Positions 12,119 to 29,251 of a stretch of 32,000 nucleotides of DNA are shown piece by piece. The notes under the pieces are model-generated. The model did not search any database, had not been told where the DNA came from, and saw nothing but the letters and a program-made list of their open reading frames with translations. Origin of the DNA: Candidatus Saccharimonadota bacterium (GTDB taxonomy: Archaea > Nanohalarchaeota > Nanosalinia > Nanosalinales > Nanosalinaceae); contig NZ_CP180230.1 in assembly GCF_047555085.1 (NCBI RefSeq), forward strand, positions 1,014,239-1,046,238. The letters run 5' to 3'. Both the position numbers and the translations under genes were made by a program. The stretch's first letter is position 1. The number at the start of each line of letters is the position of its first letter.

Positions 12119-12200
12119 ACTTAGACGAAAAACTCAGAGGTTAAAAAACCATCCACCACTAAAAACCTTCAGCGAGAAAAAATTTTCGGAGGCCTCAAAG

Positions 12201-13663: not shown

Positions 13664-13672
13664 AGAAAATTT

Positions 13673-13684
13673 TTGAGGCCTCAA
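13673..13684. repeat. perfect 12-bp palindrome TTGAGGCCTCAA in the FkbM-formyltransferase spacer
   Basis: Read directly from the sequence. It is centred on an AGGCCT copy, 10-21 nt upstream of ATG 13663 on the minus strand. Confidence 0.6.
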
Positions 13685-14629: not shown

Positions 14630-15547
14630 CTACATGTATCCAAGCTCACGCAGACGATTCATGATCTCTTTATCATCCTTATTCTGCGCTCTTCCAGCTC
14701 TTTCTTTCGTGTTCTCCACGTCCTGAAGCCATGCAGGGATCTCATCAGACTTGTCAGTCGAAACTTCACTTCCTAGTGAGCGGAATCCTGCCCAATACTT
14801 CGGACTTATCGGTACGTCGTCTTTTGAGAGGCCTTCCGGCAGATCTGATTCGTCCTCCGGATACTCTTCAACGTCAACGCCTGTGATATCAGGTACCATG
14901 TGGAACCATGAGACGTCCCATACATCTCTCTCATCCAGCTGAAGTATCGGATGCACTCTCAAGTGATCCGGATCGCTTCTAGGACTGTAAAAGTCTTCGT
15001 CGCCTCTTGATTCGTGCTCATCCCATCTAACTCCGTTGATAACAAGCTCGATATTTTCCTCTTCAAGCAGCTCGTTCATCGGAACAGTCTTCAGAAGATG
15101 GTTCCCGGACTCGGTGTCCATCAGCCATGGAACTTCTTCAAGATCCTCATCGATCCTGGAGGCCTCTTCCTGATTCCTGTCGTTCAGCTCTGCGACAGGC
15201 ACCATATCTCCCGGCTGATCAGCTTTTTCGATCAAGTCATCATTCCTGGCGATCAATACATCGAATCCCCAGTCGCTAGCCAGACGCTCGACGTAATCTT
15301 CAAGCTCATCGAAGTGCTGGCCGTGATCCACAAACATGAAACGTGGCTTCTCGAATCCATGCTCCTCGCAGACTCTCTTTACGAGCCAAGCTGTCAAGGT
15401 CGAGTCCTTTCCTCCTGTAAATCCGATAACGGCGTTCTCCGAGCCATATTCTTCCAGGGCTCTTTTGACGACTTCCTCTCCTGCTCTGATTTTTGCCTTT
15501 ATAGGCGCATTCTCAATTTCTTCTCGTGTTACTGGTGCTTCTGGCAT
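14630..15547 (-). CDS. PAPS-reductase / CysD-like PP-loop ATP pyrophosphatase family protein
   Basis: It has the PP-loop GFTGGKDS, GVRWDEHESRG, GFRSLGS (the usual Cys is absent) and a CysD-like tail ERAGRAQNKDDKEIMNRLRELGYM. There is no CysH-type ECG(L/I)H redox motif. I set the start to ATG 15547, which is preceded by AGGAG. The track start at 15571 is TTG. Confidence 0.75.
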   Translation of the reverse strand: MPEAPVTREEIENAPIKAKIRAGEEVVKRALEEYGSENAVIGFTGGKDSTLTAWLVKRVCEEHGFEKPRFMFVDHGQHFDELEDYVERLASDWGFDVLIARNDDLIEKADQPGDMVPVAELNDRNQEEASRIDEDLEEVPWLMDTESGNHLLKTVPMNELLEEENIELVINGVRWDEHESRGDEDFYSPRSDPDHLRVHPILQLDERDVWDVSWFHMVPDITGVDVEEYPEDESDLPEGLSKDDVPISPKYWAGFRSLGSEVSTDKSDEIPAWLQDVENTKERAGRAQNKDDKEIMNRLRELGYM

Positions 15548-15567
15548 AGTAAATCCAACTCCTAATA

Positions 15568-16353
15568 TCAATTATGTTCCGGATAATCGTAATCGTAATG
15601 ATTTAAGATAGCTTTTGCAACATCCTCCGGCTGATCAATCTCAAAATCAACGTTTTTCGTGATCAAAACTGCGTCCTCATGGTGATCTCCCTCTAACTTT
15701 CCGTGAGGAGTCTCTTCCGGCAATGTCTGTACCCTTCCCTCTCCGAACTCCGCGAATCCGTGGTCTGAAAGAACGATTAGTGGCTCATCGCTTTCAAAGT
15801 CGTAATACTCAAGTAGTTCTCCCAGAACTTCATCCATCTTCTTGTACCATTCCAAGATCAGTTCCTTGTCGTTCCAGTAGAAATGGGATACTCTATCGAG
15901 CTGCATGAAGACTACTGCGAAAAATTCCGGATCATCTTCAAGAACTTCCTTCGATTTTTTGATCAATTTTCCTCTGTCGGCCTCAAGCTCATCTAAATCA
16001 GATGAGACACCGAATCCCTCTGCCTCATACTCTGTATTGTAATTAATCGGTGGGATGACAGCTGGGATCTGCAGAATCTTTAAATCAACGTCGTCCATGA
16101 CCTCCCAAACAAAATCTCCATCGATATCCTCTCTCTTCTGAAGCTCATCACCTACGACGAAATCCTTGTGATTATGCTCATCCTGGCTGAGGCCTGTAAA
16201 AATAGATGTCCACAGAGGCGCACTCTTTGGCGTCTCCTCAACAGTCACAGTCTTGTAGTCACAGGCCTCCATCAATCTATCAAAATTCGGAAGCTCATCT
16301 CTATGAGGTTTAATCATATCCCAAGTCGCCGCGTCGATTCCGATTACTTTCAA
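15568..16353 (-). CDS. alkaline-phosphatase-superfamily protein, NPP/phosphodiesterase-like (short form, divergent)
   Basis: 261 aa. Metal-site and nucleophile pattern: VIGIDAATWD, KSAPLWTSIFTG, QLDRVSHFYW, VLSDHGF, GDHHED. No TM segment and no signal peptide. Confidence 0.65.
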   Translation of the reverse strand: MKVIGIDAATWDMIKPHRDELPNFDRLMEACDYKTVTVEETPKSAPLWTSIFTGLSQDEHNHKDFVVGDELQKREDIDGDFVWEVMDDVDLKILQIPAVIPPINYNTEYEAEGFGVSSDLDELEADRGKLIKKSKEVLEDDPEFFAVVFMQLDRVSHFYWNDKELILEWYKKMDEVLGELLEYYDFESDEPLIVLSDHGFAEFGEGRVQTLPEETPHGKLEGDHHEDAVLITKNVDFEIDQPEDVAKAILNHYDYDYPEHN

Positions 16354-16359
16354 ATTAAA

Positions 16360-16557
16360 TCACCTGTCCAAATATCCAAGTTTCTCAAGTTTTTGCGCAA
16401 TTTCCTTGGCCTGTTCTTCTGAAAGTTCTTCCTCTTCTTTAGAATCCGATTCAGAAAGTTCCCTCAACTTGTCCTGGACAAATCTTGAAAGATTGATATG
16501 ATTCTCATCCACAAAATCTGCTAGATCATCCGGCAAGGAAATAGTCTTTCGCTCCAT
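16360..16557 (-). CDS. small ribbon-helix-helix (CopG/Arc-like) protein
   Basis: 65 aa from ATG 16557. MERKTISLPDDLADFVDENHINLSRFVQDKLRE fits the beta-strand/helix/helix RHH pattern, followed by an acidic tail ending LEKLGYLDR. It lies 6 nt upstream of the AlkP-like gene. Confidence 0.55.
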   Translation of the reverse strand: MERKTISLPDDLADFVDENHINLSRFVQDKLRELSESDSKEEEELSEEQAKEIAQKLEKLGYLDR

Positions 16558-16560
16558 CAA

Positions 16561-16580
16561 TATGCATAACTTATGCATAA
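16561..16580. promoter_or_regulatory. tandem TATGCATAA repeats (11-bp register), candidate RHH operator / promoter element
   Basis: TATGCATAA occurs at 16561-16569 and 16572-16580. Each copy contains the palindrome ATGCAT. The repeats lie immediately upstream of the RHH gene ATG (16557) in a 43-nt spacer. Confidence 0.3.
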
Positions 16581-16600
16581 TCATTGATAAATGTGTGGAA

Positions 16601-18298
16601 TTATTTCCCTAGGACAATACTAGCACCCTCAGGCATAAACCTTGCTCCCGCTATAAGACGTATATCTGTCGCCTTTATATCAAATCCTCCTTTCCATAGA
16701 CCTGAAAGTTCAGTGGAATTGGTGACATTTAGTGATGTCTGTCCTGAAGATCTTAGAATTGCTTCTCTGCGGACATCAAATACGCTATTGATCGTGTAAG
16801 TTCGTGACGCCAAATCATTTTCTGCATTCATAATACACTCATTTAACGGACCTCTTTCATTACAGAACTCGGTATTATACCGAATCACAACAACTCCATC
16901 CCCTCCATCTCCACCAGAGTGACTATCGCTTCCTGCATATCCCATACCTCCCCCACCACCTCCAAATCCATCTACACCGTCCTCTGGAGGCGCACTTCCT
17001 AGGGCGCCATCCCCTCCACCTCCAAGGCCTCCTTCTCCATAACCAGCTTCAACAGAAATATCGTTTTCAGGGCCCCCTCCACCACCTCCAGCATAGTAAA
17101 TACATTTTCCAGCTATACAGTATTCTTTTCCGTCTCCTCCATCTCCAGGCCTGCCTCCAGCACCGTAACCGTCTTCTCCAGGCTCAGCTGCGCCTCCTCC
17201 ACCAGCTCCTGCTCCAGAACCGGTATCTCCCATCCCTCCATTGTTTCCGAGCCCGTCAGTAGTATCATTTTGAACAGTAGATCCTGGTGTGTCATGACAC
17301 TCTCCAGATCCTCCGCCTCCTGAACCTCCGTCTGTGGCGCTTCCTACAGACGAGTCTCCACACCCTGCTGCCCCACCACCACCTCCTAAAGCAGTGAAGC
17401 CAAAAGCAGATGTGTCACCACCGTTTTCTCCAGCAGTTTCAGTACCGCTCTGAGTTCCTCCCGCACCACCAGCACCTATATCTATACTATAGTCCTGGCT
17501 TGGGTCAACAGAAACACCTTCTCTATAAACAATTCCTCCAGCACCGCCACCACCTCCGTTATCGGCGCCTCCGCCTCCACCACCACCAACAAGCAAAATA
17601 TCAACACTGTTAACCCCGGAAGGTGGCGTCCACTGCGTTGAACCTCCAGTGGTGCTGTAATGTATTTTTTCAACATCTTCAGTTCCTGTGACATTCAGGT
17701 TATCGAAAGATGCAGAAGGATTCTGAGCATCCGATATAAAACCAATCGAATCAGGCTCCACGCCTATATCATGACTGGCAGAAATCTCTCCATCAACATA
17801 AAACTCCATCATTCCCTCACTGTACTCTACAGCAAACTCGTGAGGTGACCCAACATCAAAATTTTTACCTGAAGATACACCACTCACATCTCCGCCTTCA
17901 ATATATCCAATACCGTTAACACCGTGATCATTAGTTATAGTGGCAGTCCACCACCTATTCTCCGATTCATCATACAGAACGAGTCCTGAAGCATCATTGT
18001 CGCCAGCGCCTAAATAATCGGATTCAAAACGAAAACTTTCCGGAAGAGAGATGTCCGCAGGATCGACATGAATAGCAAGATCATCGTTTGAATCATCAGA
18101 CTCTAAAACACAACTAGATTCGTCCCAGATCCAGCCTCCATTGGTATTCCCTCCTCTATTAGTATGCTCCGTCTTCACATAACTAGACTCATTAGAAGAA
18201 CTACAGAAATCATCAGTCAAAACCGTAGAAGAAATGCCAACAGAACTGAAAGCCACAAAGAAGACGAACACAACAAAAAGACTCTTCACAGGCCCCAT
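16601..18298 (-). CDS. secreted or surface protein: signal/anchor helix, jelly-roll (LamG/DUF1080-like) domain, long glycine-rich domain, C-terminal domain
   Basis: 565 aa from ATG 18298; the track start at 18304 is TTG. It has a hydrophobic N-terminus (KSLFVVFVFFVAFSSVGI). Track residues about 236-476 are poly-Gly blocks, starting at VDILLVGGGGGGGADNGGGGGAGGIVY and ending at GGDGGDGVVVIRY. It carries five N-x-S/T sequons. Confidence 0.7.
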   Translation of the reverse strand: MGPVKSLFVVFVFFVAFSSVGISSTVLTDDFCSSSNESSYVKTEHTNRGGNTNGGWIWDESSCVLESDDSNDDLAIHVDPADISLPESFRFESDYLGAGDNDASGLVLYDESENRWWTATITNDHGVNGIGYIEGGDVSGVSSGKNFDVGSPHEFAVEYSEGMMEFYVDGEISASHDIGVEPDSIGFISDAQNPSASFDNLNVTGTEDVEKIHYSTTGGSTQWTPPSGVNSVDILLVGGGGGGGADNGGGGGAGGIVYREGVSVDPSQDYSIDIGAGGAGGTQSGTETAGENGGDTSAFGFTALGGGGGAAGCGDSSVGSATDGGSGGGGSGECHDTPGSTVQNDTTDGLGNNGGMGDTGSGAGAGGGGAAEPGEDGYGAGGRPGDGGDGKEYCIAGKCIYYAGGGGGGPENDISVEAGYGEGGLGGGGDGALGSAPPEDGVDGFGGGGGGMGYAGSDSHSGGDGGDGVVVIRYNTEFCNERGPLNECIMNAENDLASRTYTINSVFDVRREAILRSSGQTSLNVTNSTELSGLWKGGFDIKATDIRLIAGARFMPEGASIVLGK

Positions 18299-18339
18299 AC
18301 ACAATTAATCGATACTCTGAAATATAAATCTAGGAGAAC

Positions 18340-19740
18340 TTACATGTAGCCGAGATCCTTCAAGTTCTCTTTGATCTTTTCATCTTTTACATTCAAATCT
18401 TTCCCTTCCTCGTCCTCTTTCTGAGACGGCTCGCCCACCTTGCTTCTGATTGCCTCTGACGCAGAATCTGAAACAGCTTTATTTCCTCTGCACGGATTCT
18501 CCTCTCTTTCTCCATCCGAGTACTCTATCAGCTGTTCTCTCTCATTTACTGCCGATACACTGTATCTGGAATGCTTTTTCCGATCCTCATCAGTCAAGTC
18601 CAAGTCCCTGAATGCTGGAAAATTCTCTCCACCATAATCCTCAGAAATAGCATAATCCACAGGTTCAATAGTACTGGTGTCTCCATCTGCAAGGTCTATA
18701 ATATGATCTCTGAGCTGCCTCAACTCGACAGCTCCCTCAACATTTGCTTCAACTTCTTCAGGGAATACCTCGATGAGCGGGACATGTGTTACCTCTTCAT
18801 GTAGTCCTACGAGATGGTTCGGTCTCTTATGTGCATACAGGTACTCACCATGATCAGAAGTAAAGATAAATATCGTGTTAGGGTGTTTCCCCCTAATAGT
18901 TTTGTAAAGGTTCTCTAGACGGTAGTCAAGGTAGCTTATCGAGCCATCATACAGAGACTCCTTGATATCCATCATCTCCTCGTCCGGCTCCTTCCTGGAA
19001 TCAAGGTAAGGCTTCATATTCTCGTGATCTGCCTCAAAAATACTCTTGTACCTCAATTTTCTATCTAGGTACTTGTGAGAGTATGGAAACGGTGGCTTAA
19101 ACGGGGCGTGAGGCTCCGCATAGTTTAGAAACATGAAAAACGGCTCGTCATCCAAATCTTCCAAGTATTCAAATGCCTTCTCATTAGTTTTCTTAGCTCC
19201 AGAATCAATCCTCATCGAGGCCTTCTTCAATACGAAAAAACCAGCTTCAAATAGATCCCTGAAGTTGCCTCCCAGCAAGGCCTCTTTTCCGAGCTTCCAG
19301 TACTTCTCCAGCTTCGGGACATTGCGCATCTCCTTGGCCTTCTCAAAAATCGAGTTATCATCTAAGTCAACGCCCTCATTCATAAACTCATGTCTGTCAA
19401 AAAACGTGTCTACTCCTGTAGAAGACGAAAGATAACCTACATTGACTGCCGCCAAGTTAGTATATCCTTTTTCTTTCAAATCATCTTGTAAAACATTCAG
19501 GCCTTCAATATTCTTGTCAAGATCTGCCTTATGCTCCGAGAGATACTGGCCTGAAAACATTGATGCATGAGAGGACAAAGTCCAGTTCGCCTGACTGTAA
19601 GCATTCTCATACACCACATTCTCCTCAGCCAGTTCATCCAAGAACGGTGTTGTCTTCTTTTCATACCCGTAACACGAAAAATTCTGGGCACGGGCAGTAT
19701 CCATTACAACAAGGACAATATTATACCTCTCATCACTCAT
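18340..19740 (-). CDS. sulfatase-fold alkaline-phosphatase-superfamily protein with Thr nucleophile motif (long form 1)
   Basis: Motifs VVMDTARAQNFSCYGY, WTLSSHASMFSG, YAEPHAPF and FTSDHGE are present. It lacks the C/S-x-P-x-R formylglycine motif. The preferred start is ATG 19740 (MSDERYNIV...); the track start is 19779. Confidence 0.75.
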   Translation of the reverse strand: MSDERYNIVLVVMDTARAQNFSCYGYEKKTTPFLDELAEENVVYENAYSQANWTLSSHASMFSGQYLSEHKADLDKNIEGLNVLQDDLKEKGYTNLAAVNVGYLSSSTGVDTFFDRHEFMNEGVDLDDNSIFEKAKEMRNVPKLEKYWKLGKEALLGGNFRDLFEAGFFVLKKASMRIDSGAKKTNEKAFEYLEDLDDEPFFMFLNYAEPHAPFKPPFPYSHKYLDRKLRYKSIFEADHENMKPYLDSRKEPDEEMMDIKESLYDGSISYLDYRLENLYKTIRGKHPNTIFIFTSDHGEYLYAHKRPNHLVGLHEEVTHVPLIEVFPEEVEANVEGAVELRQLRDHIIDLADGDTSTIEPVDYAISEDYGGENFPAFRDLDLTDEDRKKHSRYSVSAVNEREQLIEYSDGEREENPCRGNKAVSDSASEAIRSKVGEPSQKEDEEGKDLNVKDEKIKENLKDLGYM

Positions 19741-19830
19741 AACAGAGATAAGATTCCTGTGAAGTAAAAAAGGTATCATTTAAACATCAAATTCGAATTA
19801 GATGATACTACGGAGTGCAGGATAAATCAA

Positions 19831-20706
19831 ATGAAAACTATAGTAATAGCACTTGACGGACTGGACTATGAACTTGTAAAGGAATTCGAACTGGAAAACA
19901 TTATCCAGGAAGAGACAGGGGAAATCAACAACTACGAAGGCATAAATAAAATCAAGACTTCGGAGCTTTTTGCATCATTTATCACAGGAAAAACCTGGGA
20001 AGAACACGGAGTAACAGGCCTAGCAAAATGGTCCAATCATAGAATACAGAAATTTGAAGATTTAGTTGAAGGGATCTGGTTCTTTGATAAGTTCAGGGAG
20101 CTCAGACAGGCTGTATTCGAGACAGTAGGCCTCTTCAATGCCAGTCAGAGAAAATACACTAAAGAAGATCTCGAGGCAGAAACAGTATTCGAAGAAATTG
20201 AGAACTCAAGAGCAATGTTCGTGCCAAGTTATAATCCCAGCATGACGTGGATTATAAGAGCCGGCACAGCACCTCTAAAATTTGGATTTACTTCCGAAGA
20301 TGTAGTGGAGTACTGGGATAGTAGAGAATACGAACACAGGAAAAGGGAGCTTTTCAGCGAACTGGAAAACGAATTTGTTCCAGCACGTGACCTCCTCATG
20401 TGTCACTTCCACAGGCCTGACATGCACCACCACATGTATGGCGACAAAAACCTCGGAAACTTCGATAAAGCAAAACTAAAAGAACTCTATAAAGAAACAG
20501 ATGACCTGGCTGGAAAGATTAAGAAAAAAGCCCTGGAAAAAGGATACGAAAGGATAATCTTCATGTCCGATCACGGCCTCCCTCTCGCAAAAGGACACAA
20601 CAAGAACGCTTTCTACTCATCCAACAAACCACTTTTCCCAGATAAAACACCACATATAACCGACTTCCATGACGCATTTGTTAAAGAATCAGCGACCAAC
20701 AAGTAA
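19831..20706 (+). CDS. alkaline-phosphatase-superfamily protein, NPP/phosphodiesterase-like (short form, paralog A)
   Basis: 291 aa with IALDGLDYELV, KTSELFASFITGKTWEEHGV, HFHRPDMHHH, IFMSDHGLP and GHNKNAFYSSNK. It is paralogous to 23591-24460 and 28371-29237. Confidence 0.7.
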   Translation: MKTIVIALDGLDYELVKEFELENIIQEETGEINNYEGINKIKTSELFASFITGKTWEEHGVTGLAKWSNHRIQKFEDLVEGIWFFDKFRELRQAVFETVGLFNASQRKYTKEDLEAETVFEEIENSRAMFVPSYNPSMTWIIRAGTAPLKFGFTSEDVVEYWDSREYEHRKRELFSELENEFVPARDLLMCHFHRPDMHHHMYGDKNLGNFDKAKLKELYKETDDLAGKIKKKALEKGYERIIFMSDHGLPLAKGHNKNAFYSSNKPLFPDKTPHITDFHDAFVKESATNK

Positions 20707-20708
20707 CT

Positions 20709-22253
20709 ATGCCTGAAGACGAAAATCGGGAGATACTGAATACTTTAGCCAAAGGAGCGGGCATAACCGCCTTCGGAATGTTCGCTTCAAAGTTTCTGAC
20801 GTATCTCTACAGAGCCTTAGTTGGAAGGACTCTCGGCCCTGAAGCCTACGGGCAGCTTGCACTTGGAATAATGATTGTTAATATTGCCGTAACTTTCTCA
20901 GGAGGGCAAATACGTAATGGCCTCAAAAAGTTTATACCCGAGTACAGAGAAGAGAGAAACACAGCTGCTATCAAGGGAATAGTCATTTCAGCACTAGGTA
21001 TAAACATTATAGGCTCCATAATAATTGGATTGACAATATTTTTCTCCGCAGAATTCCTCGCTAATCAGATTTTCAAGAATCCTGCACTAGTGCCAATAAT
21101 CAAAGTATTTGCATTTGTGCCTCTGATATCAAGACCCTATAACACATTCATAGATACAACTATCGGATTCAATACCGCAAAGTACAAAGTTATCACAACT
21201 AATTTCTTCCAGAACATAGTCCAGCTCATTGTAACTGCAGTGCTTATCTACGTCGGCTTTGATGTCATGGGGGCTGTTTGGGGATGGGTTGCTGGAGTAA
21301 CACTCGCTGGAATATTAGGATTCTACTATATGGAGAGAAAAGTTGGTCCTATACTCACAAGCGGAGAGAAACCAGAATACCATGGCAGAGAATTAGTCCG
21401 TTACTCGTTCCCCCTCATGCTCTCAGGGATGGTGAGCATATTCATGGGATGGACTGATACCGCATTCCTCGGATACTACATGAGCGAATCCGTAGTAGGT
21501 CTCTACAACGCAGCCTTTCCAACCGCAATGCTGATACTTATACCGATACAGGCTCTCGGAAGCCTTACACTCACATCCTTTGCAGAACAGAACACTAAAG
21601 ATGAAAATCCAGGAAAAACCCTCAAAACAACAGCAAGATGGGTATTCATATTCACATTTCCTGCCTTCCTCATAATGACGCTCTACTCAAGCGAATTACT
21701 ACACCTCCTATTCGGCTCCAAGTTCGCATCTGCCGGAACTGCACTAGCAGTACTGGCGCTCGGAAACATGCTGGGCGCATCAACAGGACATATCGCCGAT
21801 CTACTGAAATCAAAAGGGCACACAAAACCAATATTCTACAACAACATCGCCAACGTAGTGCTAAACATCATACTCAACATCGCACTCATCCCAACGTTAG
21901 GCATGCTAGGCGCAGCAATCGCCACAGCATCCTCAAGCATCTTCATGAACTTCCTACTAGTAGCAGAAACCTGGAGATACGAAAAAATACACCCATTCAC
22001 CAGAAAAATAATCAAGCCAGCAGCCGCAGGAACAATATCCCTAACAGCCACCTACCTACTCTTCCACCAGCTAATCTCTCCTGCACCGTACTGGCTGCTT
22101 ATACCCGCAGGAATAATCTTCCTAGGCCTCTACACACTAATACTCCTCAAAATAGGAGGCCTCACAGAATACGATCGTGAAATAATAACTACAATAGGGA
22201 GAAAAATCGGATACGAGAAGGAAGTAGAAAAAATGCTTAAGACTCTGACTTAA
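20709..22253 (+). CDS. Wzx/MOP-superfamily oligosaccharide flippase (AglR-like polysaccharide biosynthesis protein)
   Basis: 514 aa with about 14 TM helices. The N-terminal segment is typical of polysaccharide-biosynthesis flippases (GAGITAFGMFASKFLTYLYRALVGRTLGPEAYG). Confidence 0.8.
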   Translation: MPEDENREILNTLAKGAGITAFGMFASKFLTYLYRALVGRTLGPEAYGQLALGIMIVNIAVTFSGGQIRNGLKKFIPEYREERNTAAIKGIVISALGINIIGSIIIGLTIFFSAEFLANQIFKNPALVPIIKVFAFVPLISRPYNTFIDTTIGFNTAKYKVITTNFFQNIVQLIVTAVLIYVGFDVMGAVWGWVAGVTLAGILGFYYMERKVGPILTSGEKPEYHGRELVRYSFPLMLSGMVSIFMGWTDTAFLGYYMSESVVGLYNAAFPTAMLILIPIQALGSLTLTSFAEQNTKDENPGKTLKTTARWVFIFTFPAFLIMTLYSSELLHLLFGSKFASAGTALAVLALGNMLGASTGHIADLLKSKGHTKPIFYNNIANVVLNIILNIALIPTLGMLGAAIATASSSIFMNFLLVAETWRYEKIHPFTRKIIKPAAAGTISLTATYLLFHQLISPAPYWLLIPAGIIFLGLYTLILLKIGGLTEYDREIITTIGRKIGYEKEVEKMLKTLT

Positions 22254-23594
22254 TCAGGTAAAAATCTTCAACTTGTCAATCATACTCTCAGCTTTTTCCT
22301 CTAATCCCTCAAAAACTTCCTCAGCCTCCTCTTCACGGAAATCCGAGTTAATCCTAATATTCTCTTCACTGTAGCCTCTGATAACTTTTTCACCATCCTT
22401 TTCTACAGAAACACTGTCCTTCGTAAAGTCATATATCATCTCGCCCTCCACAAATTTTGGATTATTGGCGATATCCCTGCCAGGATACTCGGTAATAGCA
22501 TACTCAACCTCATCTATAGGCTTCAACGTCCCGTCTGCAATATCAATAATATGATCATGTAGCTGTCTGGTCTCTACCTGATATTCTATGTTCTTATTCA
22601 CATCTTCAGGAAAATCCTCAATTAGGGGTACGCGAGTAACTTCATCGTGAAGACTACCGAAATGCTCAAAGTGATCATGCTCTCCGAATGCTTCTCCGTG
22701 ATCGGATGTTATGATGAACACTGTATTCGGATAATCCTCTTTAATACTATCATAGAGCTCCTTAATCTTCCCATCAAGATACCTCTGCTCGCCTTTGTAG
22801 AGATTTTTCATGGTCTCCAACTCCTCATGATTCACATCCACATCATTCCTGTAAAAATGCGGCGTATGACGCCTCACATACGGAGAGAAACTAGCAAGAG
22901 ATGTAAGCGATAGCCACTTCTTTTTATTATCTAAAAACTTATGGGAATAAGGAAAGGGTGGGCTATAAGGGTCATGCACCTCAAGATAGTTTATAAACAT
23001 ATAAAATGGGTTGTCAGATGCATTAGCATGATTTAAAGCAATCTCATTAGTTCTCTTCGCCCCACTATCATTTAGGAGTAAGACCTCTTTAGTAAGATAT
23101 TTGCCAAGGTTAAATATACCTCTGAAACCTTCCTCTCTGTAACAGGACTTTACTGCTGCACCAAATTTTCCAAAAATACCCTCAGCTTTTTCTATATCCT
23201 CCATCACCCCAATCTTGCTCATGTAATTCGAATTCACATAGTCATATCTGTCAAAATACTCATCAAAACCATACTGAGGCCAGAGAAATGGAACATTTAC
23301 AACACCTATCGTCTCATAACCTCTTTCTGAAAGATGAGAAGGAAACATATCCAAATTTCTCAAATCGTCTTCCGCTGTCATGACTCCATGATGATGTTGA
23401 TGTTTGCCTGTAAACATTGATGCATGTGAGGGCATAGTCCATACCGCCTGAGACACCGGCCTCTCGTACTTAACACCTCCTTCAGCCAGAGAGTCCAAGA
23501 AAGGACTTGTTTCGTCTTCACATCCATAGCAGGAGAGAGTATCTGCCCTGGCTGTATCCATAACAATATGAACTATATTCGGTTTTTCACTCAT
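22254..23594 (-). CDS. sulfatase-fold alkaline-phosphatase-superfamily protein with Thr nucleophile motif (long form 2)
   Basis: 446 aa with IVMDTARADTLSCYGC, WTMPSHASMFTG, YLEVHDPY and ITSDHGE. It is a paralog of 18340-19740. Its ATG overlaps the stop of the upstream gene (ATGA). Confidence 0.75.
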   Translation of the reverse strand: MSEKPNIVHIVMDTARADTLSCYGCEDETSPFLDSLAEGGVKYERPVSQAVWTMPSHASMFTGKHQHHHGVMTAEDDLRNLDMFPSHLSERGYETIGVVNVPFLWPQYGFDEYFDRYDYVNSNYMSKIGVMEDIEKAEGIFGKFGAAVKSCYREEGFRGIFNLGKYLTKEVLLLNDSGAKRTNEIALNHANASDNPFYMFINYLEVHDPYSPPFPYSHKFLDNKKKWLSLTSLASFSPYVRRHTPHFYRNDVDVNHEELETMKNLYKGEQRYLDGKIKELYDSIKEDYPNTVFIITSDHGEAFGEHDHFEHFGSLHDEVTRVPLIEDFPEDVNKNIEYQVETRQLHDHIIDIADGTLKPIDEVEYAITEYPGRDIANNPKFVEGEMIYDFTKDSVSVEKDGEKVIRGYSEENIRINSDFREEEAEEVFEGLEEKAESMIDKLKIFT

Positions 23595-24460
23595 TTTATC
23601 TTGTCCTCGTTATCTGTTAACTCCAGAATTTTATCATAAAAATCCGTGATATGCGGAGTCTCATCTCCAAACAGCTCTCTATTACATGAATAAAAAGCAT
23701 TCTTGTTATGTTCATGTGGACCTGATTTTTTCTCAGGACGACCATGATCCGACATGAAAATCACAGTCCACTCATCACCATACTCCTCAAGAATCTGCCC
23801 GGCAATATCATCAAGTCTTTCATATTCTTCTTCTAAATCTCCAAGACCTGTATCCTGAAACGCATCAGGGTCATGAAGATGAAGCATGATAAAATCCCAA
23901 AAATCCTTTGAAACATCAAAGAAAGCAGGCTGAGTAGCAGTCCCCTGGCGCAACCTTACTTCAGTATCATGTCTAGACTCTTCTACAAACCTTTCTTCTC
24001 CATAATATCTTACAACCGCATGAGGTAAAGCCACGAGCCAGTACATAGAAGGATTATAACTAGGAACATACAGCGGCAATGAAGCATCAATCTCTTCAAA
24101 AATAGTCTCTACCTGCAAATCATCTCTTATATAATTAGTATCCTCCAAGGACTTGCTTTGCTTAATTACATCTCTCAAAGTCCGAAATCCACGAACATGA
24201 CTGACCAAAAAATCAGGAATCAAGTGCTTCGAAATCTTATCTCTAAAAGTAAGCTTCTTCGAAAGGCCTTCAACGCCATGGTCTCTGTAAGTTTCACCTG
24301 TAATAAACGAAGCGAAAAGCTCACTAGTCATCCTATTCTTGATTCCAGTAGAATTATCTATATCCCCGAACTCCTCTTGTGGGATATTTTCAAGATCAAA
24401 CTCTTCTACCAGTTCTTTATCCATTCCATCAAAAGCCACAACTAGAACATTTTCCGTCAT
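23591..24460 (-). CDS. alkaline-phosphatase-superfamily protein, NPP/phosphodiesterase-like (short form, paralog B)
   Basis: 289 aa with VAFDGMDKELV, MTSELFASFITGETYRDHGV, HLHDPDAF, IFMSDHGRP and HEHNKNAFYSCNR. Confidence 0.7.
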   Translation of the reverse strand: MTENVLVVAFDGMDKELVEEFDLENIPQEEFGDIDNSTGIKNRMTSELFASFITGETYRDHGVEGLSKKLTFRDKISKHLIPDFLVSHVRGFRTLRDVIKQSKSLEDTNYIRDDLQVETIFEEIDASLPLYVPSYNPSMYWLVALPHAVVRYYGEERFVEESRHDTEVRLRQGTATQPAFFDVSKDFWDFIMLHLHDPDAFQDTGLGDLEEEYERLDDIAGQILEEYGDEWTVIFMSDHGRPEKKSGPHEHNKNAFYSCNRELFGDETPHITDFYDKILELTDNEDKIK

Positions 24461-25180
24461 TTATTTCCACACCGCTGTTATGACTTTAACATCTCTTTCC
24501 TGGATTTCTTCGTCTTCCTCAGCTTCCTCTATACTCTCAATCTCATATCCGAGTTCCAGTATTTTCTCTTTAACTTTTTCTGTTGGCGAATCAAAAACAC
24601 CATGAGTCTCCACTATCAATACTTCAGGCCGAATTTCAAGACTATCCAGTATTTTCAACTCAGCTCCTTCCACGTCAATTTCTAGAACATCACATTCGGG
24701 AAGATCCTCTACAGGCATAACTTCGGCGTTCATCTCTTCCCCGAACAGGTTCCCTTTCTCTCCTACAATTTTGTGATGAACTGAAATATCTTCTTTTTCG
24801 TTAAATCTCAGCGTCCTTCGAATCTTTTCGACCTGCTCACCACTTGCCTCATATACAGAAACATTTTCAGGTGAAGTTATCTCTGCCGCATGAACTGCAG
24901 AAACACCTAGGCCTCCACCTATAATTATGACTTCGTCTCCAGAAGATACATTTTTCTCAAGGGAATTCAAAATCCCTTTTTCGTAAGTCTCATTGTTCAG
25001 TTCTTTCAGATCTAGAGAGGGTTGGAAAAACCTTGCTGAAGGCACTTCTACACCATTATAAACTCCCTTTCTAAGAGGCATAACTTCTTCCAAAAAATTC
25101 TGGTAAACGAACCTCATACCTCTCTTCAATAATAGAGAAATTCCTCCTTCTTTCACGGCTTTCCGAACTTTATTTTTCAT
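24461..25180 (-). CDS. class I SAM-dependent methyltransferase-like protein (FkbM-like)
   Basis: It has a Rossmann motif VIIIGGGLGVSAVHAAE, an acidic VYEASGEQ segment and the FkbM-like VLEIDVEGAELKIL. The preferred start is ATG 25180; the track start at 25189 is GTG. Confidence 0.5.
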   Translation of the reverse strand: MKNKVRKAVKEGGISLLLKRGMRFVYQNFLEEVMPLRKGVYNGVEVPSARFFQPSLDLKELNNETYEKGILNSLEKNVSSGDEVIIIGGGLGVSAVHAAEITSPENVSVYEASGEQVEKIRRTLRFNEKEDISVHHKIVGEKGNLFGEEMNAEVMPVEDLPECDVLEIDVEGAELKILDSLEIRPEVLIVETHGVFDSPTEKVKEKILELGYEIESIEEAEEDEEIQERDVKVITAVWK

Positions 25181-26162
25181 TTTTCTCACTGGTTGAATTA
25201 TCTCTTGATTCTTTTTCAGAATACCTGTCCATTATTTCTTGAAATTCTTCAGAAAATTTCGAAATAGAATTTTCCTTCTCAAAATTTCCTAATTTGTTCT
25301 GAAGCTCTTCCAAAATTTTTTCTCTAGCTCCATCTCCAAGGTCTGCGTATTTTACTCCTTCTGCAAGATCTTCAGCATCAAATTTTCTGATTAGGTTTTC
25401 GTCCACATTTCTTACGATTTCTTTGGCTCCGACATTCTCTGTGACTACAGGGATGCTTCCTGCGGCTATGGCTTCGAGTACTGAGATTCCGAAGGCGTCG
25501 GCTCTAGACGGTTGTACGTAGATTTTCGATGTTTTGAGTTCGTGTATGAGTTTTTCTTCTGGTACGTAGCCGAGGTTTTCGACATTTTTGTGGTATTCAA
25601 GGTCTGTCTTGTTTCCGATCAGCTTGGCTTGAAAATCTCCTTTCTCTGCTGCTTCCTCGAGTACGTCGGTTCCTTTCCAGCCGTTTTTTCTGGTGTGTCT
25701 GGCGACTGTTAGGATTCCTTCTCGTTCTTCTCCTGTTTCTTCCATTAGTTTTTCTTTCCTTTCCTCGTCGATGTACGGATTGATGACTTTGATCGGGCAG
25801 TCAAGGAAAGTTTCTGCCTGTTCTTTGATCCATTCAGAGTCTGCGATTGCTCCGTCAACCTTTTTTGCAGCCCATTTTTCGCCTTTCATTGCATCGTGAC
25901 CGTTCTGAATCATATAGTAAGTTCCTCCAACTATCATACGAACTATTTTTGTCCCAGGCCGGATTTGTTTATGGAGTGCTGCTGTTCTGGTGCTTCCTGA
26001 ATCTTCGCAGAGAAGTACATCGTACTTGAAGAGTTTTGGATGAATAGCCTGAAGAATTCCTAACTTTCCATGCTTTATCTGCATGAAGTCTGCGTCGACT
26101 GATTCTGCCCATGAGGAATGTACTTCATGTGGCTCTCCATTATGTAGGAATAAAACATCCAT
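25170..26162 (-). CDS. GT-B fold glycosyltransferase (GT4 / Glycos_transf_1)
   Basis: 330 aa with the C-terminal donor-binding motif ADAFGISVLEAIAAGSIPVVTENVGAKEIV. Confidence 0.8.
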   Translation of the reverse strand: MDVLFLHNGEPHEVHSSWAESVDADFMQIKHGKLGILQAIHPKLFKYDVLLCEDSGSTRTAALHKQIRPGTKIVRMIVGGTYYMIQNGHDAMKGEKWAAKKVDGAIADSEWIKEQAETFLDCPIKVINPYIDEERKEKLMEETGEEREGILTVARHTRKNGWKGTDVLEEAAEKGDFQAKLIGNKTDLEYHKNVENLGYVPEEKLIHELKTSKIYVQPSRADAFGISVLEAIAAGSIPVVTENVGAKEIVRNVDENLIRKFDAEDLAEGVKYADLGDGAREKILEELQNKLGNFEKENSISKFSEEFQEIMDRYSEKESRDNSTSEKNEK

Positions 26163-26219
26163 TCTGTAAACTAGTTATTGAAGCGAATAGATAAAAGACA
26201 TCTGAACGAATTCCAGGAC

Positions 26220-27308
26220 ATGAGGATTGCTGTTGTTTATCCTAGGATCAGTCGTGGAATAGGCGGGATTGAGTCTGTTACTGATGAGATTCTTTCAGAG
26301 TTATCAGAAGAGGATGATGTTGTTTTCTTTTCTGTGGTCCCGGAGAAGTTTAGAGAGTCTCTGAGTGAGGAAGTTCTAGGGCGGATTGAGGTCAGGGATG
26401 TTGGATCGAATATTCGTATTCCTCTGCGTGATTCGGAGCGTTTCCAGTTGTTGAAGGAGAAGCTAATTCATAGAAGAATCGGAAGCTTCATGGAGGAGGA
26501 AAGCGGAGATTTTGACGCAGTTGTTTTTTCTGCGAAGTTCATGTATTCGGGGAATTTTGACTGTCCGACCATCCAATATGTTCATAATCCGAGTGTAAGT
26601 TTTCAGCGGAGTGAGTATTCCTCCAATCCTCTGAAATCTGTTTATGATAGTTTCCTGAATTTTCTCAGTTCTGACGTATTTGATGCAGACCTGAATCTGT
26701 TTAACTCAGAGTTCACACGTGAAACGTACTCCAGTATTTCAGGAGACGTCCTGTATCCACCTGTAGAATCCGATTTTTTTCCAGGCGATAAGGAGGATAG
26801 AGTCATCTGTCTGGGCCGGATTGCAAGGAATAAACGTATTGATGAGGCTATCGATATCGTTGCTTCTACCGAAAAAAATCTTGAGATGACAGTGATGGGT
26901 AGAACTACAGAAGGTACGCCAGAGTCTTATTTACAGAAACTTGAAAGCCGGGAGAAAAAATACGACTGGCTGGAGATCAAAACGGATGTTCCTCAGGACG
27001 AACTGGTTAAAGAAATGGCTAAGTCAAAAATCGGTATTCTAAGTACGAGGAATGAGCATTTTGGCATCGCTGCCGTGGAGTACATGAAGGCTGGTGCGCT
27101 TCCAATGGTACACAGTAGTGGAGGTGTCCAGAGCTTAGTGAATAAAGACAGATTCACGTATGAATCAATAGGAGAGGCCTCAGAAAAGATTGATGAGAAT
27201 CTCGGAGAATACGATGAGTTGAGAGATTTCGTTATTGAACGCGGGAAAGATTTTGATGTAGAAAGTTTCAGAAAAGGAATCAGAGAATCAGTGAACGGTA
27301 TTACCTGA
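26220..27308 (+). CDS. GT-B fold glycosyltransferase (GT4 / Glycos_transf_1)
   Basis: It carries the motif NEHFGIAAVEYMKAGALPMVHSSGGVQSLV. I set the start to ATG 26220 (MRIAVVYP...); the track start at 26178 is TTG. Confidence 0.8.
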   Translation: MRIAVVYPRISRGIGGIESVTDEILSELSEEDDVVFFSVVPEKFRESLSEEVLGRIEVRDVGSNIRIPLRDSERFQLLKEKLIHRRIGSFMEEESGDFDAVVFSAKFMYSGNFDCPTIQYVHNPSVSFQRSEYSSNPLKSVYDSFLNFLSSDVFDADLNLFNSEFTRETYSSISGDVLYPPVESDFFPGDKEDRVICLGRIARNKRIDEAIDIVASTEKNLEMTVMGRTTEGTPESYLQKLESREKKYDWLEIKTDVPQDELVKEMAKSKIGILSTRNEHFGIAAVEYMKAGALPMVHSSGGVQSLVNKDRFTYESIGEASEKIDENLGEYDELRDFVIERGKDFDVESFRKGIRESVNGIT

Positions 27309-28374
27309 ATTCTTCAATAGCTTTTTCTAAAGCTGAGGTGCCTTTATCTAAAGATATATATTTTTCTGAAGTTTCAGGATTTTTCTTGAGTAAATTTTGG
27401 AGCTCAGAAGCATCTCCCTCTCTAAAAATTTTTTCTTTATCCAGTAGTTCTTTTGCGCCGGCTGCTTCTGTTGTGATTGCTGGAGTGCTGTAGTGCAGGG
27501 CCTCGTTGATGACTAGGCCCCATGGATCGTGATGTGTTGGGAGTACGAATAGATCCGCTGCATCAAAGTAGTTTGCTTTCTCCTGCTCCGATAAGTAGCC
27601 GACAAACTCTATCCTGTCGTCCTCTGAGGCCTTTTTCTTCAACTGTTTTTCGTATGGGCCTGTTCCTGCAATTACAAGCGTGTAGTCCTCATCGTCAATT
27701 CTCCGAAAGGCCTCAATTAAGTCTTGTACTCCTTTTCTTTCTTCTAGGTATCCTAGTGATAGGATCATTTTTTGGCCTGAGTAGTTCTCCTTCAGATCGT
27801 GATTTTCCGGCTCCGGCAGTAGTTTTTCCGGCATTACTTGTATCTGTGTCTCGATTTTTTCCTCCGCTACTCCTCTTCTCACAAGAAATTCTTCTGCCAT
27901 CTCGGAAAAGGCGACGAATCTATCGGAGAACTTGAAAAGTATTTTTCTGTAACTCTCTTTGAAGCTTCTCCAGGCCTTTACAGGTATTTTCTTGAGAACT
28001 GAGTCTGGAATTTCCCTAGATTTTTCTGTATCTATAGTTTCGCTCCAGATTACTACAGGCCTCTGTTTGAGTTTTGCTACTGTTAGAATCGCGAACGATT
28101 GTAGAAAAGTTGATGGATTCTCGTTGATGAAGTATACGTCAAAATTTTCATTTAGTAGTTTCCAGAAAAATCCTGGATTGAATGTGAGTGGGCCTAGTTG
28201 AAAATTATCCAAAATTTTGTAGTCAAAGCCGTAGTCGTCGAATTCGGCTTCCCATTCTCTTTCTTCTCCTTTCCTGTGGAACCATACTTCTACATCGTAT
28301 TCTTCATTTAGCTCCTCGAAAAGTGGAAGTCGGTACGGGGAAATAATGTTTTGATTGAAAAATATTCGAGTCAT
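27301..28374 (-). CDS. GT-B fold glycosyltransferase (GT4 / Glycos_transf_1)
   Basis: 357 aa with the motif HHDPWGLVINEALHYSTPAITTEAAGAKELL. Its 3' end overlaps the convergent GT gene by 8 nt. Confidence 0.8.
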   Translation of the reverse strand: MTRIFFNQNIISPYRLPLFEELNEEYDVEVWFHRKGEEREWEAEFDDYGFDYKILDNFQLGPLTFNPGFFWKLLNENFDVYFINENPSTFLQSFAILTVAKLKQRPVVIWSETIDTEKSREIPDSVLKKIPVKAWRSFKESYRKILFKFSDRFVAFSEMAEEFLVRRGVAEEKIETQIQVMPEKLLPEPENHDLKENYSGQKMILSLGYLEERKGVQDLIEAFRRIDDEDYTLVIAGTGPYEKQLKKKASEDDRIEFVGYLSEQEKANYFDAADLFVLPTHHDPWGLVINEALHYSTPAITTEAAGAKELLDKEKIFREGDASELQNLLKKNPETSEKYISLDKGTSALEKAIEEFR

Positions 28375-29237
28375 TCAACTAGCTCCAGAACCTTATCGTG
28401 GAAATCCATGATTTTAGGAGTTTGGTCTAGGAACAGTTCTTTGTTGGAGGAGTAGAAAGCGTTTTCGTTGTGTCCGATCTTCGCTGGCAGGCCATGATCG
28501 GACATGAATATTATGTAGTCGTAGCCTTTCTCTAGGGCCTTCTCCTTGATCTCTCCCGCAAGTTCATCCATCTCGTTGTACATTTCCCTGAGTTTCTCTT
28601 CATCGTAATTCGCGTCTTTATCGCCGTAGAGATGATGGAATGTATCTGATCTATGAAAATGCATCATTAGAAAGTCTCGAGCTGGAATAAACTCGTTTTC
28701 CAGTTCGCTGAATAATTTTTCTTTCCTGTGACTGAACTCTCTCGTGTCGTAGTGCTCCATCGTCTCTGCCGGAGTCTTTCCGAACCCTAGAGGTCTCAGA
28801 TCTGCCTCTATAGTCCAGAAGGTCGAAGGATTATACCCTGGGACAAAGATAGGCCTTGAATTATCTATCTTCTCGAAAAGTGTATCGACTTTGAGGTCTT
28901 CTTTTTCCCATTTTGTCTCTTCAGCGTCAAGTGCCGATTTCAATGTCTCTCGTACCCTATGCAGTCCTCTCTTTGTTTCAAGCAAATTTTTAGGTACTAA
29001 AGTATCCAGAATTTCTCCACGAGAATCTTTCCACTTATTGAGGCCCTCAATTCCGTGCTCTTCCCAGTTAGTGCCTGTGATAAAAGATGCGAAAAGCTCA
29101 GAGGTGTAGATATTCTTCATCCCTGTCTGGTTGTCGATCGATCCGAACTCTTCCTGCCTAATATTTTCCAGTTCAAACTCTTCAATCAGTTCTTTGTCAA
29201 GTCCGTCGAAAGCGACTACAAGTACGTTTTCACTCAT
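28371..29237 (-). CDS. alkaline-phosphatase-superfamily protein, NPP/phosphodiesterase-like (short form, paralog C)
   Basis: 288 aa with VAFDGLDKELI, YTSELFASFITGTNWEEHGI, HFHRSDTFHH, IFMSDHGLP and GHNENAFYSSNK. It is the closest paralog of 19831-20706. Confidence 0.7.
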   Translation of the reverse strand: MSENVLVVAFDGLDKELIEEFELENIRQEEFGSIDNQTGMKNIYTSELFASFITGTNWEEHGIEGLNKWKDSRGEILDTLVPKNLLETKRGLHRVRETLKSALDAEETKWEKEDLKVDTLFEKIDNSRPIFVPGYNPSTFWTIEADLRPLGFGKTPAETMEHYDTREFSHRKEKLFSELENEFIPARDFLMMHFHRSDTFHHLYGDKDANYDEEKLREMYNEMDELAGEIKEKALEKGYDYIIFMSDHGLPAKIGHNENAFYSSNKELFLDQTPKIMDFHDKVLELVE

Positions 29238-29251
29238 TTCTGTCAGGCCCT

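Follow-up and report, generated by a model that had tools for sequence, protein, structure and literature searches.

Soluble alkaline phosphatase superfamily proteins in a nanohaloarchaeal glycan island and their possible part in cytoplasmic glycan sulfation

The window analysed here, a stretch of 32,000 nucleotides of contig NZ_CP180230.1 (positions 1,014,239 to 1,046,238) from Candidatus Nanosalina sp. VS9-1, is a cell-surface glycan island anchored by aglB, and positions 15568-29237 are best explained as its variable part. This part encodes six proteins of the alkaline phosphatase (AlkP) superfamily, here called A1 to A6 (Table 1), which by sequence comparison fall into three families: the long sulfatase-fold proteins A2 and A4 (L family), the short proteins A3, A5 and A6, which resemble nucleotide pyrophosphatases/phosphodiesterases (NPP) and are referred to as mini-NPPs (S family), and A1. 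All six lack signal peptides and membrane segments and lie among genes for glycosyltransferases of family 4 (GT4) and a flippase, and A1 orthologues of other genomes are in most cases direct neighbours of the ATP sulfurylase proteins CysD and/or CysN. The account of the island as a whole that we favour, at about even probability, is that the lipid-linked glycan is decorated with ester groups, mostly sulfate, in the cytoplasm.

All six open reading frames exceed the Pfam gathering thresholds (23 bits for Phosphodiest, PF01663, and 25 bits for Sulfatase), four with Phosphodiest and two with Sulfatase; a search of the window with custom family hidden Markov models (HMMs) brought up no seventh protein. 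The AlkP core, consisting of the N-terminal metal-binding Asp, the Ser/Thr nucleophile, an Asp/His pair in the middle of the protein and the (S)DHG motif, is present as invariant columns in all three family alignments. A preliminary description of this DNA had assigned the same six reading frames to the superfamily with an intact metal and nucleophile scaffold, and the motifs it quoted lie on these columns; its nucleophile segment is found in all six proteins too, with the correction that the nucleophile of A1 is Ser and not Thr. The absence of signal peptides and transmembrane helices also holds: there is no hydrophobic segment in any of the proteins (maximum 19-residue Kyte-Doolittle value of 1.01), and the metal-binding Asp is positioned at residues 7-14, on the first beta-strand, leaving no space for a signal peptide. 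The window proteins are therefore not of the secreted or ecto-enzyme type that is characteristic of NPP/ENPP enzymes. Their isoelectric points range from 4.3 to 5.6, but the earlier argument that acidic proteins should be cytoplasmic does not stand, as acidity is uninformative on location in a salt-in halophile.

The description of the six proteins as one set of paralogues was not borne out by BLASTP: A3, A5 and A6 are 43-57% identical to each other (57% for A3 and A6, 43-46% for A5 with either), A2 and A4 are 40% identical, and A1 is a singleton with marginal similarity to the S family (E 1e-5). Profile-profile comparison relates the S family to A1 (probability 96.9%), with T45 of S placed opposite S44 of A1. 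HMM and structure checks, both proposed at the outset, agree with the assignment: in addition to the matches above threshold, confident AlphaFold2 models of A4 and A6 predict folds of the AlkP type.

One line of evidence for a link to sulfate comes from A1. Its orthologues have a uniform size of about 258 amino acids, are 42-50% identical and are found in Nanohaloarchaea, Aenigmatarchaeota, Iainarchaeum, Hydrothermarchaeales, ANME-1, Methanosarcinales and Dehalococcoidia/Chloroflexia. Alignment columns of the family average 60% identity, and D7, S44, D153, H157, D197, H198, H224 and H225 are invariant. We surveyed a genome collection for loci with a strong A1 ortholog and annotated these with custom HMMs (loci are numbered L001, L002 and so on): in 29 of 34 loci, CysD and/or CysN is encoded within 1.5 kb of A1 and in the same orientation, and two more loci are truncated by a contig end. 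CysN is present in 18 surveyed loci. The order CysD-CysN-A1, often with TauE ahead, is seen in L005, L006 and L007. A1 adjoins a CysD-like gene in L003, L004 and L008, as it does in the window. CysD homologues of the CysD-CysN-A1 cassettes score 256-341 bits with NCBIfam CysD (cut-off 195), and those of L004, L005 and L030 are above this cut-off. A gene for an FkbM-family methyltransferase is found inside or beside the A1/CysD pair not only in the window but also in L008 and L006, and L006 has TauE, CysD, CysN, A1, an L-type sulfatase-like protein, a flippase and FkbM together.

The CysD homologue of the window is divergent: its best NCBIfam match is the CysD subfamily with 66.9 bits (cut-off 195), it aligns over the full length with CysD of L005 and L006 at 27.6% identity (E 1e-28 to 1e-30) and it has a GGKDS loop and a CysD-type C-terminal tail (...RLRELGYM). 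The probable true start of the gene is the ATG at 15547, about 20 nucleotides downstream of A1 and without overlap. No CysN partner was identified in the window.

What is missing from the cassettes is adenylyl sulfate (APS) kinase: BLASTP with Escherichia coli CysC as query detected none within 6 kb of any of about 30 A1 cassettes. The same query finds APS kinases with 44-53% identity in five other loci, all from bacterial metagenome-assembled genomes (MAGs; L052, L053, L055, L059 and L064), and in several of these the APS kinase gene is beside a gene for a longer (450-570 amino acids) Phosphodiest-type relative of A1; the two genes abut in L053 (52-2986, order TauE-CysC-AlkP) and in L055 (660-2639). 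This adjacency is a second, independent tie of this branch of the AlkP superfamily to activated sulfate. The longer A1 relatives often neighbour L-family genes, and have CysD/CysN as neighbours in a Woesearchaeote, a Patescibacterium and a Planctomycete.

In a Methanosarcinales MAG (JAODGH010000039.1; L026, 656-6765) CysD-CysN-A1 follows straight after ComA, a ComB-like gene and a membrane protein; ComA, the phosphosulfolactate synthase, scores 312 bits with a cut-off of 280, and coenzyme M biosynthesis needs sulfite. The ANME-1 loci L027, L028 and L033 have an A1 cassette, too. In two loci from Chloroflexia/Chloroflexota the cassette ((TauE)-CysD-CysN-A1) is preceded by a Pst-type transporter (L030, 267-6774, and L006, 1-6780); in L030 PstC and PstA exceed the NCBIfam cut-offs, PstB falls slightly short and the binding protein is divergent (89 bits, cut-off 206). 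A sulfoquinovose route was considered for the short-chain dehydrogenase/reductase (SDR) and thioredoxin genes near the cassettes of L006 and L007 and was rejected: there is no APS reductase, and the SDR proteins of the window are of ordinary size. The cassettes that adjoin comA/comB and cofactor genes make A1 look like a partner of ATP sulfurylase in general, and it may be a phosphatase of by-products and not a transferase. ANME CysDN proteins have been accepted as genuine, with no mention of the adjoining AlkP gene (PMC6286981), and we found no description of the A1-CysD link in the open-access literature on COG3379 or 'type I phosphodiesterase' with sulfate activation. The CysD(-CysN)-A1 cassette without APS kinase thus appears not to have been described before. 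It resembles the known CysD-CysN (NodP-NodQ) plus APS kinase arrangement in that CysD/CysN homologues flank A1 in most genomes. It differs in that the third gene encodes the AlkP-type A1 instead of APS kinase, that no classical PAPS (3'-phosphoadenylyl sulfate) sulfotransferase was seen and that, in Nanohaloarchaea and other DPANN, the CysD-like gene has no CysN.

The L family is large (3,789 matches), and among its members are many 'sulfatases' of haloarchaea and bacteria with identities of about 30%; an ortholog of A2 with 44% identity is present in L002. A2 has 466 amino acids when started at 19740 as in the NCBI annotation (P0146), and 479 in the longest open reading frame. Invariant columns are D13, T53, H57, H207, D298, H299 and H311. 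The motif C/S-x-P-x-R, at which sulfatases form their formylglycine, is absent: A4 has T-M-P-S-H and A2 has T-L-S-S-H, and in a phmmer alignment with the choline sulfatase 7oz8 the Thr of W-T-M-P-S-H falls onto the formylglycine position, while a His replaces the Arg of the motif. Thr occupies this column in 118 of 121 aligned L-family sequences (T-x-P-S-H versus C/S-x-P-x-R). As formylglycine cannot form from such a motif, A2 and A4, judged by these residues, cannot mature into classical formylglycine sulfatases. The fold is nevertheless that of the S1 sulfatases: the A4 model (pLDDT 86.4) has its best PDB matches among S1 sulfatases and phosphonate monoester hydrolases (7oz8, 6pt6, 4uph, 2vqr; TM-score 0.6-0.69, Foldseek E of about 1e-20 with S1 sulfatases), with metal Asp, Asp-His and His positions in common. 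Differences from these enzymes are, in addition to T-x-P-S-H, the predicted cytoplasmic location without signal peptide and the biosynthetic gene context.

The experimentally studied proteins to which the L forms are best compared are VNG1056C and VNG1057C of Halobacterium salinarum (Zaretsky et al., mBio 2025, PMC11980604), two sulfatase-like proteins with an AlkP core that are encoded inside an aglB-anchored cluster. Their deletion abolishes sulfation of the dolichol-phosphate-bound tetrasaccharide, and either one alone, expressed in Haloferax volcanii, causes sulfation of the host glycan; VNG1056C is membrane-associated, VNG1057C is cytosolic, and the proteins were renamed Agl30 and Agl31, respectively (PMC11980604). 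Both were placed at the cytoplasmic face, ahead of the flippase step (PMC12624080). For the long forms, the suggestion of the preliminary description that a soluble AlkP-superfamily set in an archaeal N-glycosylation cluster had not been described is therefore outdated: Agl31 is soluble, belongs to the arylsulfatase family and is encoded in such a cluster (PMC11980604).

Several features are shared. In both systems AlkP-core, sulfatase-like proteins are encoded together with glycosyltransferases and a flippase in an aglB-anchored cluster, Agl31 is soluble, as is predicted for the window proteins, and the substrate of Agl30/31 is a dolichol-phosphate-bound glycan on the cytoplasmic side. The authors named 6HHM and 5G2U as closest structures (PMC11980604), and 6hhm and 5g2u/5g2t are also among the nearest folds of the A4 model (6hhm and 5g2t being those reported as closest to VNG1057C/VNG1056C). 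The cloning primers (PMC11980604, Table 1) encode the C-termini ...HLEDLGYL and ...LEELGYT, and this tail, ...L-E-(D/E)-L-G-Y-x, matches A2 and most L-family homologues: L-x-x-L-G-Y followed by 0-3 residues forms the C-terminus of A2 and of 88 of the 120 best L-family matches and is absent from A4. By these matches the L proteins would be of the Agl30/Agl31 kind. There are differences, too: Halobacterium has two or three such genes, while the window combines two long forms with three mini-NPPs and the A1/CysD-like pair, and A4 has no LGY tail.

The primer sequence of VNG1057C has no exact match in the genome contigs, in which the species representative is likely strain 91-R6; in this strain the aglB-adjacent cluster lies in a strain-specific replaced segment, divSEG18 (PMC7002104). 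When metagenomes were scanned with the 3'-end primer sequence, there were two matches, both by chance and in unrelated genes. Agl7 of Hfx. volcanii, involved in sulfation of dolichol-phosphate-bound hexose, was not used for comparison, as its protein family is not stated in the papers.

The extreme C-terminus is also shared with CysD. In loci L003-L039, 30 of 32 CysD homologues end in ...(K/R)LRxLGYM, and the same terminal peptide is seen in the L family (A2 ...NLKDLGYM, haloarchaeal proteins ...RLEDLGYL, Agl30/31 ...LEDLGYL and ...LEELGYT) and in no A1, S or CysN protein. The shared peptide may be a common docking tail.

On a haloarchaeal megaplasmid, pHLAC01 of Halorubrum lacusprofundi (L091, 10974-14214), a 'sulfatase' with a T-R-P-S-F motif and the tail ...RLRDLGYQE is sandwiched between a glycosyltransferase and a GT4 gene, and the sandwich itself lies between ISH3 transposases; it resembles a mobile version of the module in the window.

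The S family appears not to have been described before and is, as far as profile searches tell, a small and divergent clade, since an exhaustive HMMER search of 1.84 billion representatives with the family profile gave just 731 matches with E<=1e-3 and 117 with E<=1e-30, nearly all of 270-300 amino acids. Every named member is nanohaloarchaeal. Invariant columns are D11, D14, T45, H193, D198, D247, H248 and H256. In a phmmer alignment of A6 with ENPP4 (4lqy), D11, T45, D198, H202, D247 and H248 fall on the DG, T-F-P-N-H, D-x-x-x-H and SDHG motifs; H256 is likely the seventh ligand, judged from its invariance. The A6 model (pLDDT 94.5, pTM 0.91) is closest to NPP/ENPP enzymes. The S proteins and A1 thus share with NPPs (Xac NPP 2gsn, ENPP1/3/4) the Phosphodiest matches, six bimetal ligands and the nucleophile, which is Thr in S and Ser in A1. 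They are distinguished by their size (only about 260-290 amino acids, compared with about 380 for a minimal NPP), by their predicted intracellular location and by the low similarity of the S model (TM-score of about 0.5, 12-16% identity).

S genes come after GT4 genes. The GT4-S-GT4 triad around A6 has an orthologous cassette in L001, with identities of 75% for the upstream GT4 (29252-30334), 62% for S and 68% for the downstream GT4. A6 had been described as overlapping both of its GT4 neighbours by 4 nucleotides; this is correct for the downstream gene, while a gap of 14 nucleotides separates A6 from the upstream one. The divergent arrangement of A2 and A3 and the coupling of A5 to A4 by a 4-nucleotide overlap were confirmed. 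Co-occurrence with GT4 and flippase genes recurs elsewhere, in the nanohaloarchaeal loci L001, L002 and L003 and on pHLAC01; in L002, which comes from a Nanohalobium MAG, eight genes of the AlkP superfamily lie within 15 kb together with GT4, GT2, acetyltransferase and flippase genes.

The route that we infer, in transferred group, donor, mechanism and acceptor alike, would run at the cytoplasmic face, where the six soluble enzymes would act on the lipid-linked glycan during its assembly by GT4 enzymes, before flippase and AglB. The CysD-like protein would activate sulfate to APS, and A1, as fixed partner of this step, would either relay the sulfuryl group from APS or clear the nucleotide by-product. 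A2 and A4 would, like Agl30 and Agl31, take the sulfuryl group onto their Thr and pass it to a sugar hydroxyl. Such a ping-pong reaction with a Thr-/Ser-sulfate intermediate is drawn by analogy with EptA-type enzymes, which form covalent Thr-phosphoethanolamine intermediates. A3, A5 and A6 would be further position-specific ester transferases, each tied to the neighbouring GT4, long-form or flippase gene. A wider version of this proposal is speculative and, in our judgement, doubtful: a PAPS-independent sulfation system consisting wholly of AlkP-superfamily enzymes, in which CysD makes APS, A1 handles the sulfuryl group, Ser/Thr-sulfate intermediates deliver it to glycans or other acceptors and the LGYM tail is a docking peptide that couples activation to transfer, would span DPANN, ANME/Methanosarcinales, haloarchaea and Chloroflexota.

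The hypothesis put forward in the preliminary description, that these proteins add or trim phosphoester or sulfoester substituents, has gained in its sulfoester half, from the A1 orthologues beside CysD/CysN and from the sulfation conferred by Agl30/31, and addition is now favoured over trimming. Phosphoester decoration is possible without being probable, mainly for the S family: the mini-NPPs, possibly also the long forms, would be cytoplasmic phospho-alcohol or sugar-phosphate transferases, in which the Thr attacks a CDP-alcohol or NDP-sugar and a covalent phospho-intermediate is passed on to a glycan hydroxyl, as soluble counterparts to EptA, LtaS and OpgB. The complete NPP bimetal site and Thr nucleophile of the S family, with NPP/ENPP phosphodiesterases as nearest folds, are consistent with this, as are the inositol phosphate found on an archaeal N-glycan (PMC11407970), the nucleotidyltransferase of the window (9352-10095), the genes resembling CDP-OH_P_transf and NTP_transferase amid the AlkP genes of L003 and the Pst-type transporters ahead of A1 cassettes in two Chloroflexota loci. 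The long forms, moreover, partially match the catalytic domains of EptA/MCR and CptA in NCBIfam, at 25-64 bits with cut-offs of 500-660 (for example 64 versus 561 bits). EptA/MCR-1, LtaS and OpgB do share the AlkP-superfamily domain and the Thr nucleophile, which in those enzymes serves group transfer via a covalent intermediate, but they have an N-terminal multi-span membrane domain that the long forms, inside the cytoplasm, lack. Also, no CDP-alcohol gene is present in the window, the conserved neighbour of A1 activates sulfate and not a phospho-alcohol, APS kinase abuts distant A1 relatives, and sulfate is what is added by the only relatives from aglB clusters that have been studied by experiment.

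Members of the superfamily are by default hydrolases, and the proteins could be trimming or recycling enzymes, either sulfatases and phosphodiesterases in editing, or nucleotide-sugar pyrophosphatases, or enzymes of by-product removal; this is unlikely for the set and applies mainly to A1, which would then be a non-canonical phosphatase of PAP (3'-phosphoadenosine 5'-phosphate) or PAPS, analogous to CysQ, or a pyrophosphatase that pulls ATP sulfurylase, with a function in general sulfur metabolism and none in glycan synthesis. The Ser nucleophile, as in phosphomonoesterases, the unusually high conservation of A1 across archaea and Chloroflexota, which would fit a small universal substrate, and the cassettes next to comA/comB and cofactor genes, rather than glycan genes alone, all point this way, and methanogens do have non-canonical PAP phosphatases (PMC10322725). 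Yet, with no APS kinase near the cassettes, a PAP phosphatase would have no source of PAP close by. For the other proteins, hydrolytic sulfatases require formylglycine, which is impossible in the long forms, expression of Agl30/31 results in a gain of sulfation (PMC11980604) and the close coupling of S genes with GT4 genes in translation speaks for a biosynthetic step. We consider it most improbable that the AlkP domains are PglZ-like parts of a defence system of the BREX/DISARM type that is in a glycan island by chance. The GT4 genes have weak 'GT4-conflict' Pfam matches and A4, as the only one of the six, matches PglZ with 14.5 bits (E 0.036), well short of the cut-off of 25. Matches to Sulfatase, Phosphodiest and the ordinary GT4 families are stronger, BREX/DISARM partner genes are absent from the window, all contexts are those of glycan biosynthesis or sulfate activation, and the PglZ identity was rejected.

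A number of points weigh against cytoplasmic sulfation as the function of the island. NPP-type Thr enzymes classically attack phosphorus, not sulfur. No A1 cassette has an APS kinase nearby, and the CysD-like protein of the window is both divergent and without adjoining CysN. A1 cassettes also occur outside glycan loci (with comA/comB in L026 and with cofactor genes in L028 of ANME-1), a phosphate (Pst-type) ABC transporter is immediately upstream of the cassette in two Chloroflexota loci, the AlkP genes of L003 are accompanied by CDP-alcohol-transferase-like and nucleotidyltransferase genes, and S-family genes are sometimes far from CysD/A1, as in L002. The homology of A2/A4 to Agl30/31 is based on tails, family descriptions and shared haloarchaeal relatives. 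The evidence on Agl30/31 itself consists of genetics and heterologous expression: no donor is named ('PAPS' does not occur in the text) and no sulfuryl transfer by an AlkP fold in vitro is reported (PMC11980604).

The embedding of the six genes in an N-glycosylation cluster, as first described, is confirmed by aglB, the flippase and five GT4 genes (25170-31551). The gene order of the island is SecD/F, AglB/STT3, an AglH/MraY-type transferase, two SDR epimerases, a nucleotidyltransferase fused to a ribbon-helix-helix (RHH) domain, a GT2-GtrA protein of the dolichol-phosphate-sugar synthase type, FolD and a sugar N-formyltransferase, an FkbM methyltransferase, the PAPS_reduct-family (CysD-like) protein, a secreted glycine-rich protein, a Wzx-type flippase, a second FkbM-like protein and the five GT4 genes. 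The AlkP-superfamily genes are at a distance of 10-24 kb from aglB, among the GT4 genes and the flippase. GC content is about 0.46 (0.45-0.47) in the left part of the window but only 0.40-0.42 over 18-30 kb, consistent with an exchangeable, variable segment. A related genome of 1.03 Mb (L008) keeps the left-hand genes (A1, FkbM, the CysD-like gene, the epimerases, the RHH-nucleotidyltransferase and a cupin), and genes of the S and L families are absent within 10 kb. The S/L/GT4 block looks like a variable island. The last GT4 gene (30331-31551) is 88% identical to a GT4 of L002.

Table 1. Features of the window, with positions counted from its first nucleotide
Feature	Position	Strand	Evidence and remarks
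AglB/STT3 oligosaccharyltransferase, anchor of the island	2882..5545	+	Pfam STT3 2.3e-21 and STT3-PglB_core; WWDYG motif
MraY/AglH-type sugar-1-phosphate transferase (Glycos_transf_4)	5542..6666	+	Pfam PF00953 2e-24; 4-nt overlap with aglB
Acidic protein, 397 aa	8072-9265	-	DIDDT motif; no Pfam match
RHH (CopG) domain N-terminally fused to sugar-phosphate nucleotidyltransferase	9352-10095	-	
FolD and adjoining sugar N-formyltransferase	12087-13684		Formyl_trans_N and N_formyltrans_C
FkbM-family methyltransferase, adjoins CysD-like/A1 pair	13709..14563	-	Methyltransf_21 1.7e-20; TIGR01444 106.7 bits
Divergent CysD-like PP-loop protein (PAPS_reduct family)	14630..15571	-	Pfam PAPS_reduct 2e-20
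A1, NPP-like, 261 aa, Ser nucleophile	15568..16353	-	Phosphodiest 79.5 bits, 4.7e-22
Glycine-rich protein, 567 aa, between A1 and A2	16601-18304	-	Gly_rich_2 1.6e-28; N-terminal hydrophobic leader; several N-x-S/T sequons
A2, long form, Thr nucleophile (WTLSSH), tail ...LKDLGYM	18340..19779	-	Pfam Sulfatase 130.5 bits, 1e-37
A3, mini-NPP, 291 aa, divergent from A2	19831..20706	+	Phosphodiest 49.4 bits, 6.5e-13; flippase gene 2 nt downstream
Wzx/AglR-type flippase	20709..22253	+	Pfam Polysacc_synt 4.4e-28, also Polysacc_synt_3 and MatE
A4, long form, 446 aa, Thr nucleophile (WTMPSH), no LGY tail	22254..23594	-	Pfam Sulfatase 115.6 bits, 3.5e-33
A5, mini-NPP, 289 aa	23591..24460	-	Phosphodiest 32.8 bits, 7.5e-8; ATGA-type 4-nt overlap onto A4
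FkbM-like protein, first in A5-A4 operon	24461..25189	-	Methyltransf_21 1.1e-5
GT4	25170-26162	-	Pfam Glycos_transf_1 2.9e-17
GT4	26178-27308	+	Pfam Glycos_transf_1 4.8e-14
GT4 downstream of A6, member of GT4-S-GT4 cassette	27301..28374	-	Pfam 1.2e-27; 4-nt overlap with A6
A6, mini-NPP, 288 aa	28371..29237	-	Phosphodiest 50.0 bits, 4.5e-13
Two GT4 genes upstream of A6	29252-30334, 30331-31551	-	Pfam 1.3e-28

Some of the neighbouring genes deserve mention. The glycine-rich protein between A1 and A2 is possibly a surface glycoprotein substrate of the island. FolD and the sugar N-formyltransferase adjoin each other, and their synteny with the A1/CysD-like pair is kept in L003 (17240-18714); the pair suggests that the glycan contains an amino sugar that is N-formylated, with its own supply of formyl-tetrahydrofolate. 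The fusion of an RHH domain to a nucleotidyltransferase is also present in the nanohaloarchaeon L008 (14499-15248). The very acidic protein in the sugar-nucleotide part of the island has a weak HAD-IIB signal only (TIGR01484, 19.6 bits). In L008 (268-2976), an intein with a LAGLIDADG endonuclease domain splits the gene of a nucleotide-sugar dehydrogenase (UDPG_MGDP_dh), and in the homologous glycan island of L001 (7047-8913) genes resembling a PIN and RHH toxin-antitoxin pair are inserted amid GT4 genes.

Sulfation of archaeal N-glycans was opened up only in 2025, when two sulfatase-like proteins were named. The kind of system is now known from Agl30/31, and the variant found here has multiple Thr-type long forms, GT4 cassettes with mini-NPPs and a CysD(-CysN)-A1 cassette. 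With CysD fixed beside an AlkP-type protein, without APS kinase and in the same islands as Thr-type sulfatase-fold proteins, the questions of the donor (APS or PAPS) and of a covalent Ser/Thr-sulfate intermediate become testable. The T-x-P-S-H subfamily, thousands of members of which are called 'sulfatase' in current genome annotation, provides candidates for non-hydrolytic enzymes, and a small uncharacterised family of mini-NPPs is brought to light. Nanohaloarchaea are obligate ectosymbionts of haloarchaea, and a heavily decorated, variable surface glycan likely matters for contact with the host and for evasion of viruses.

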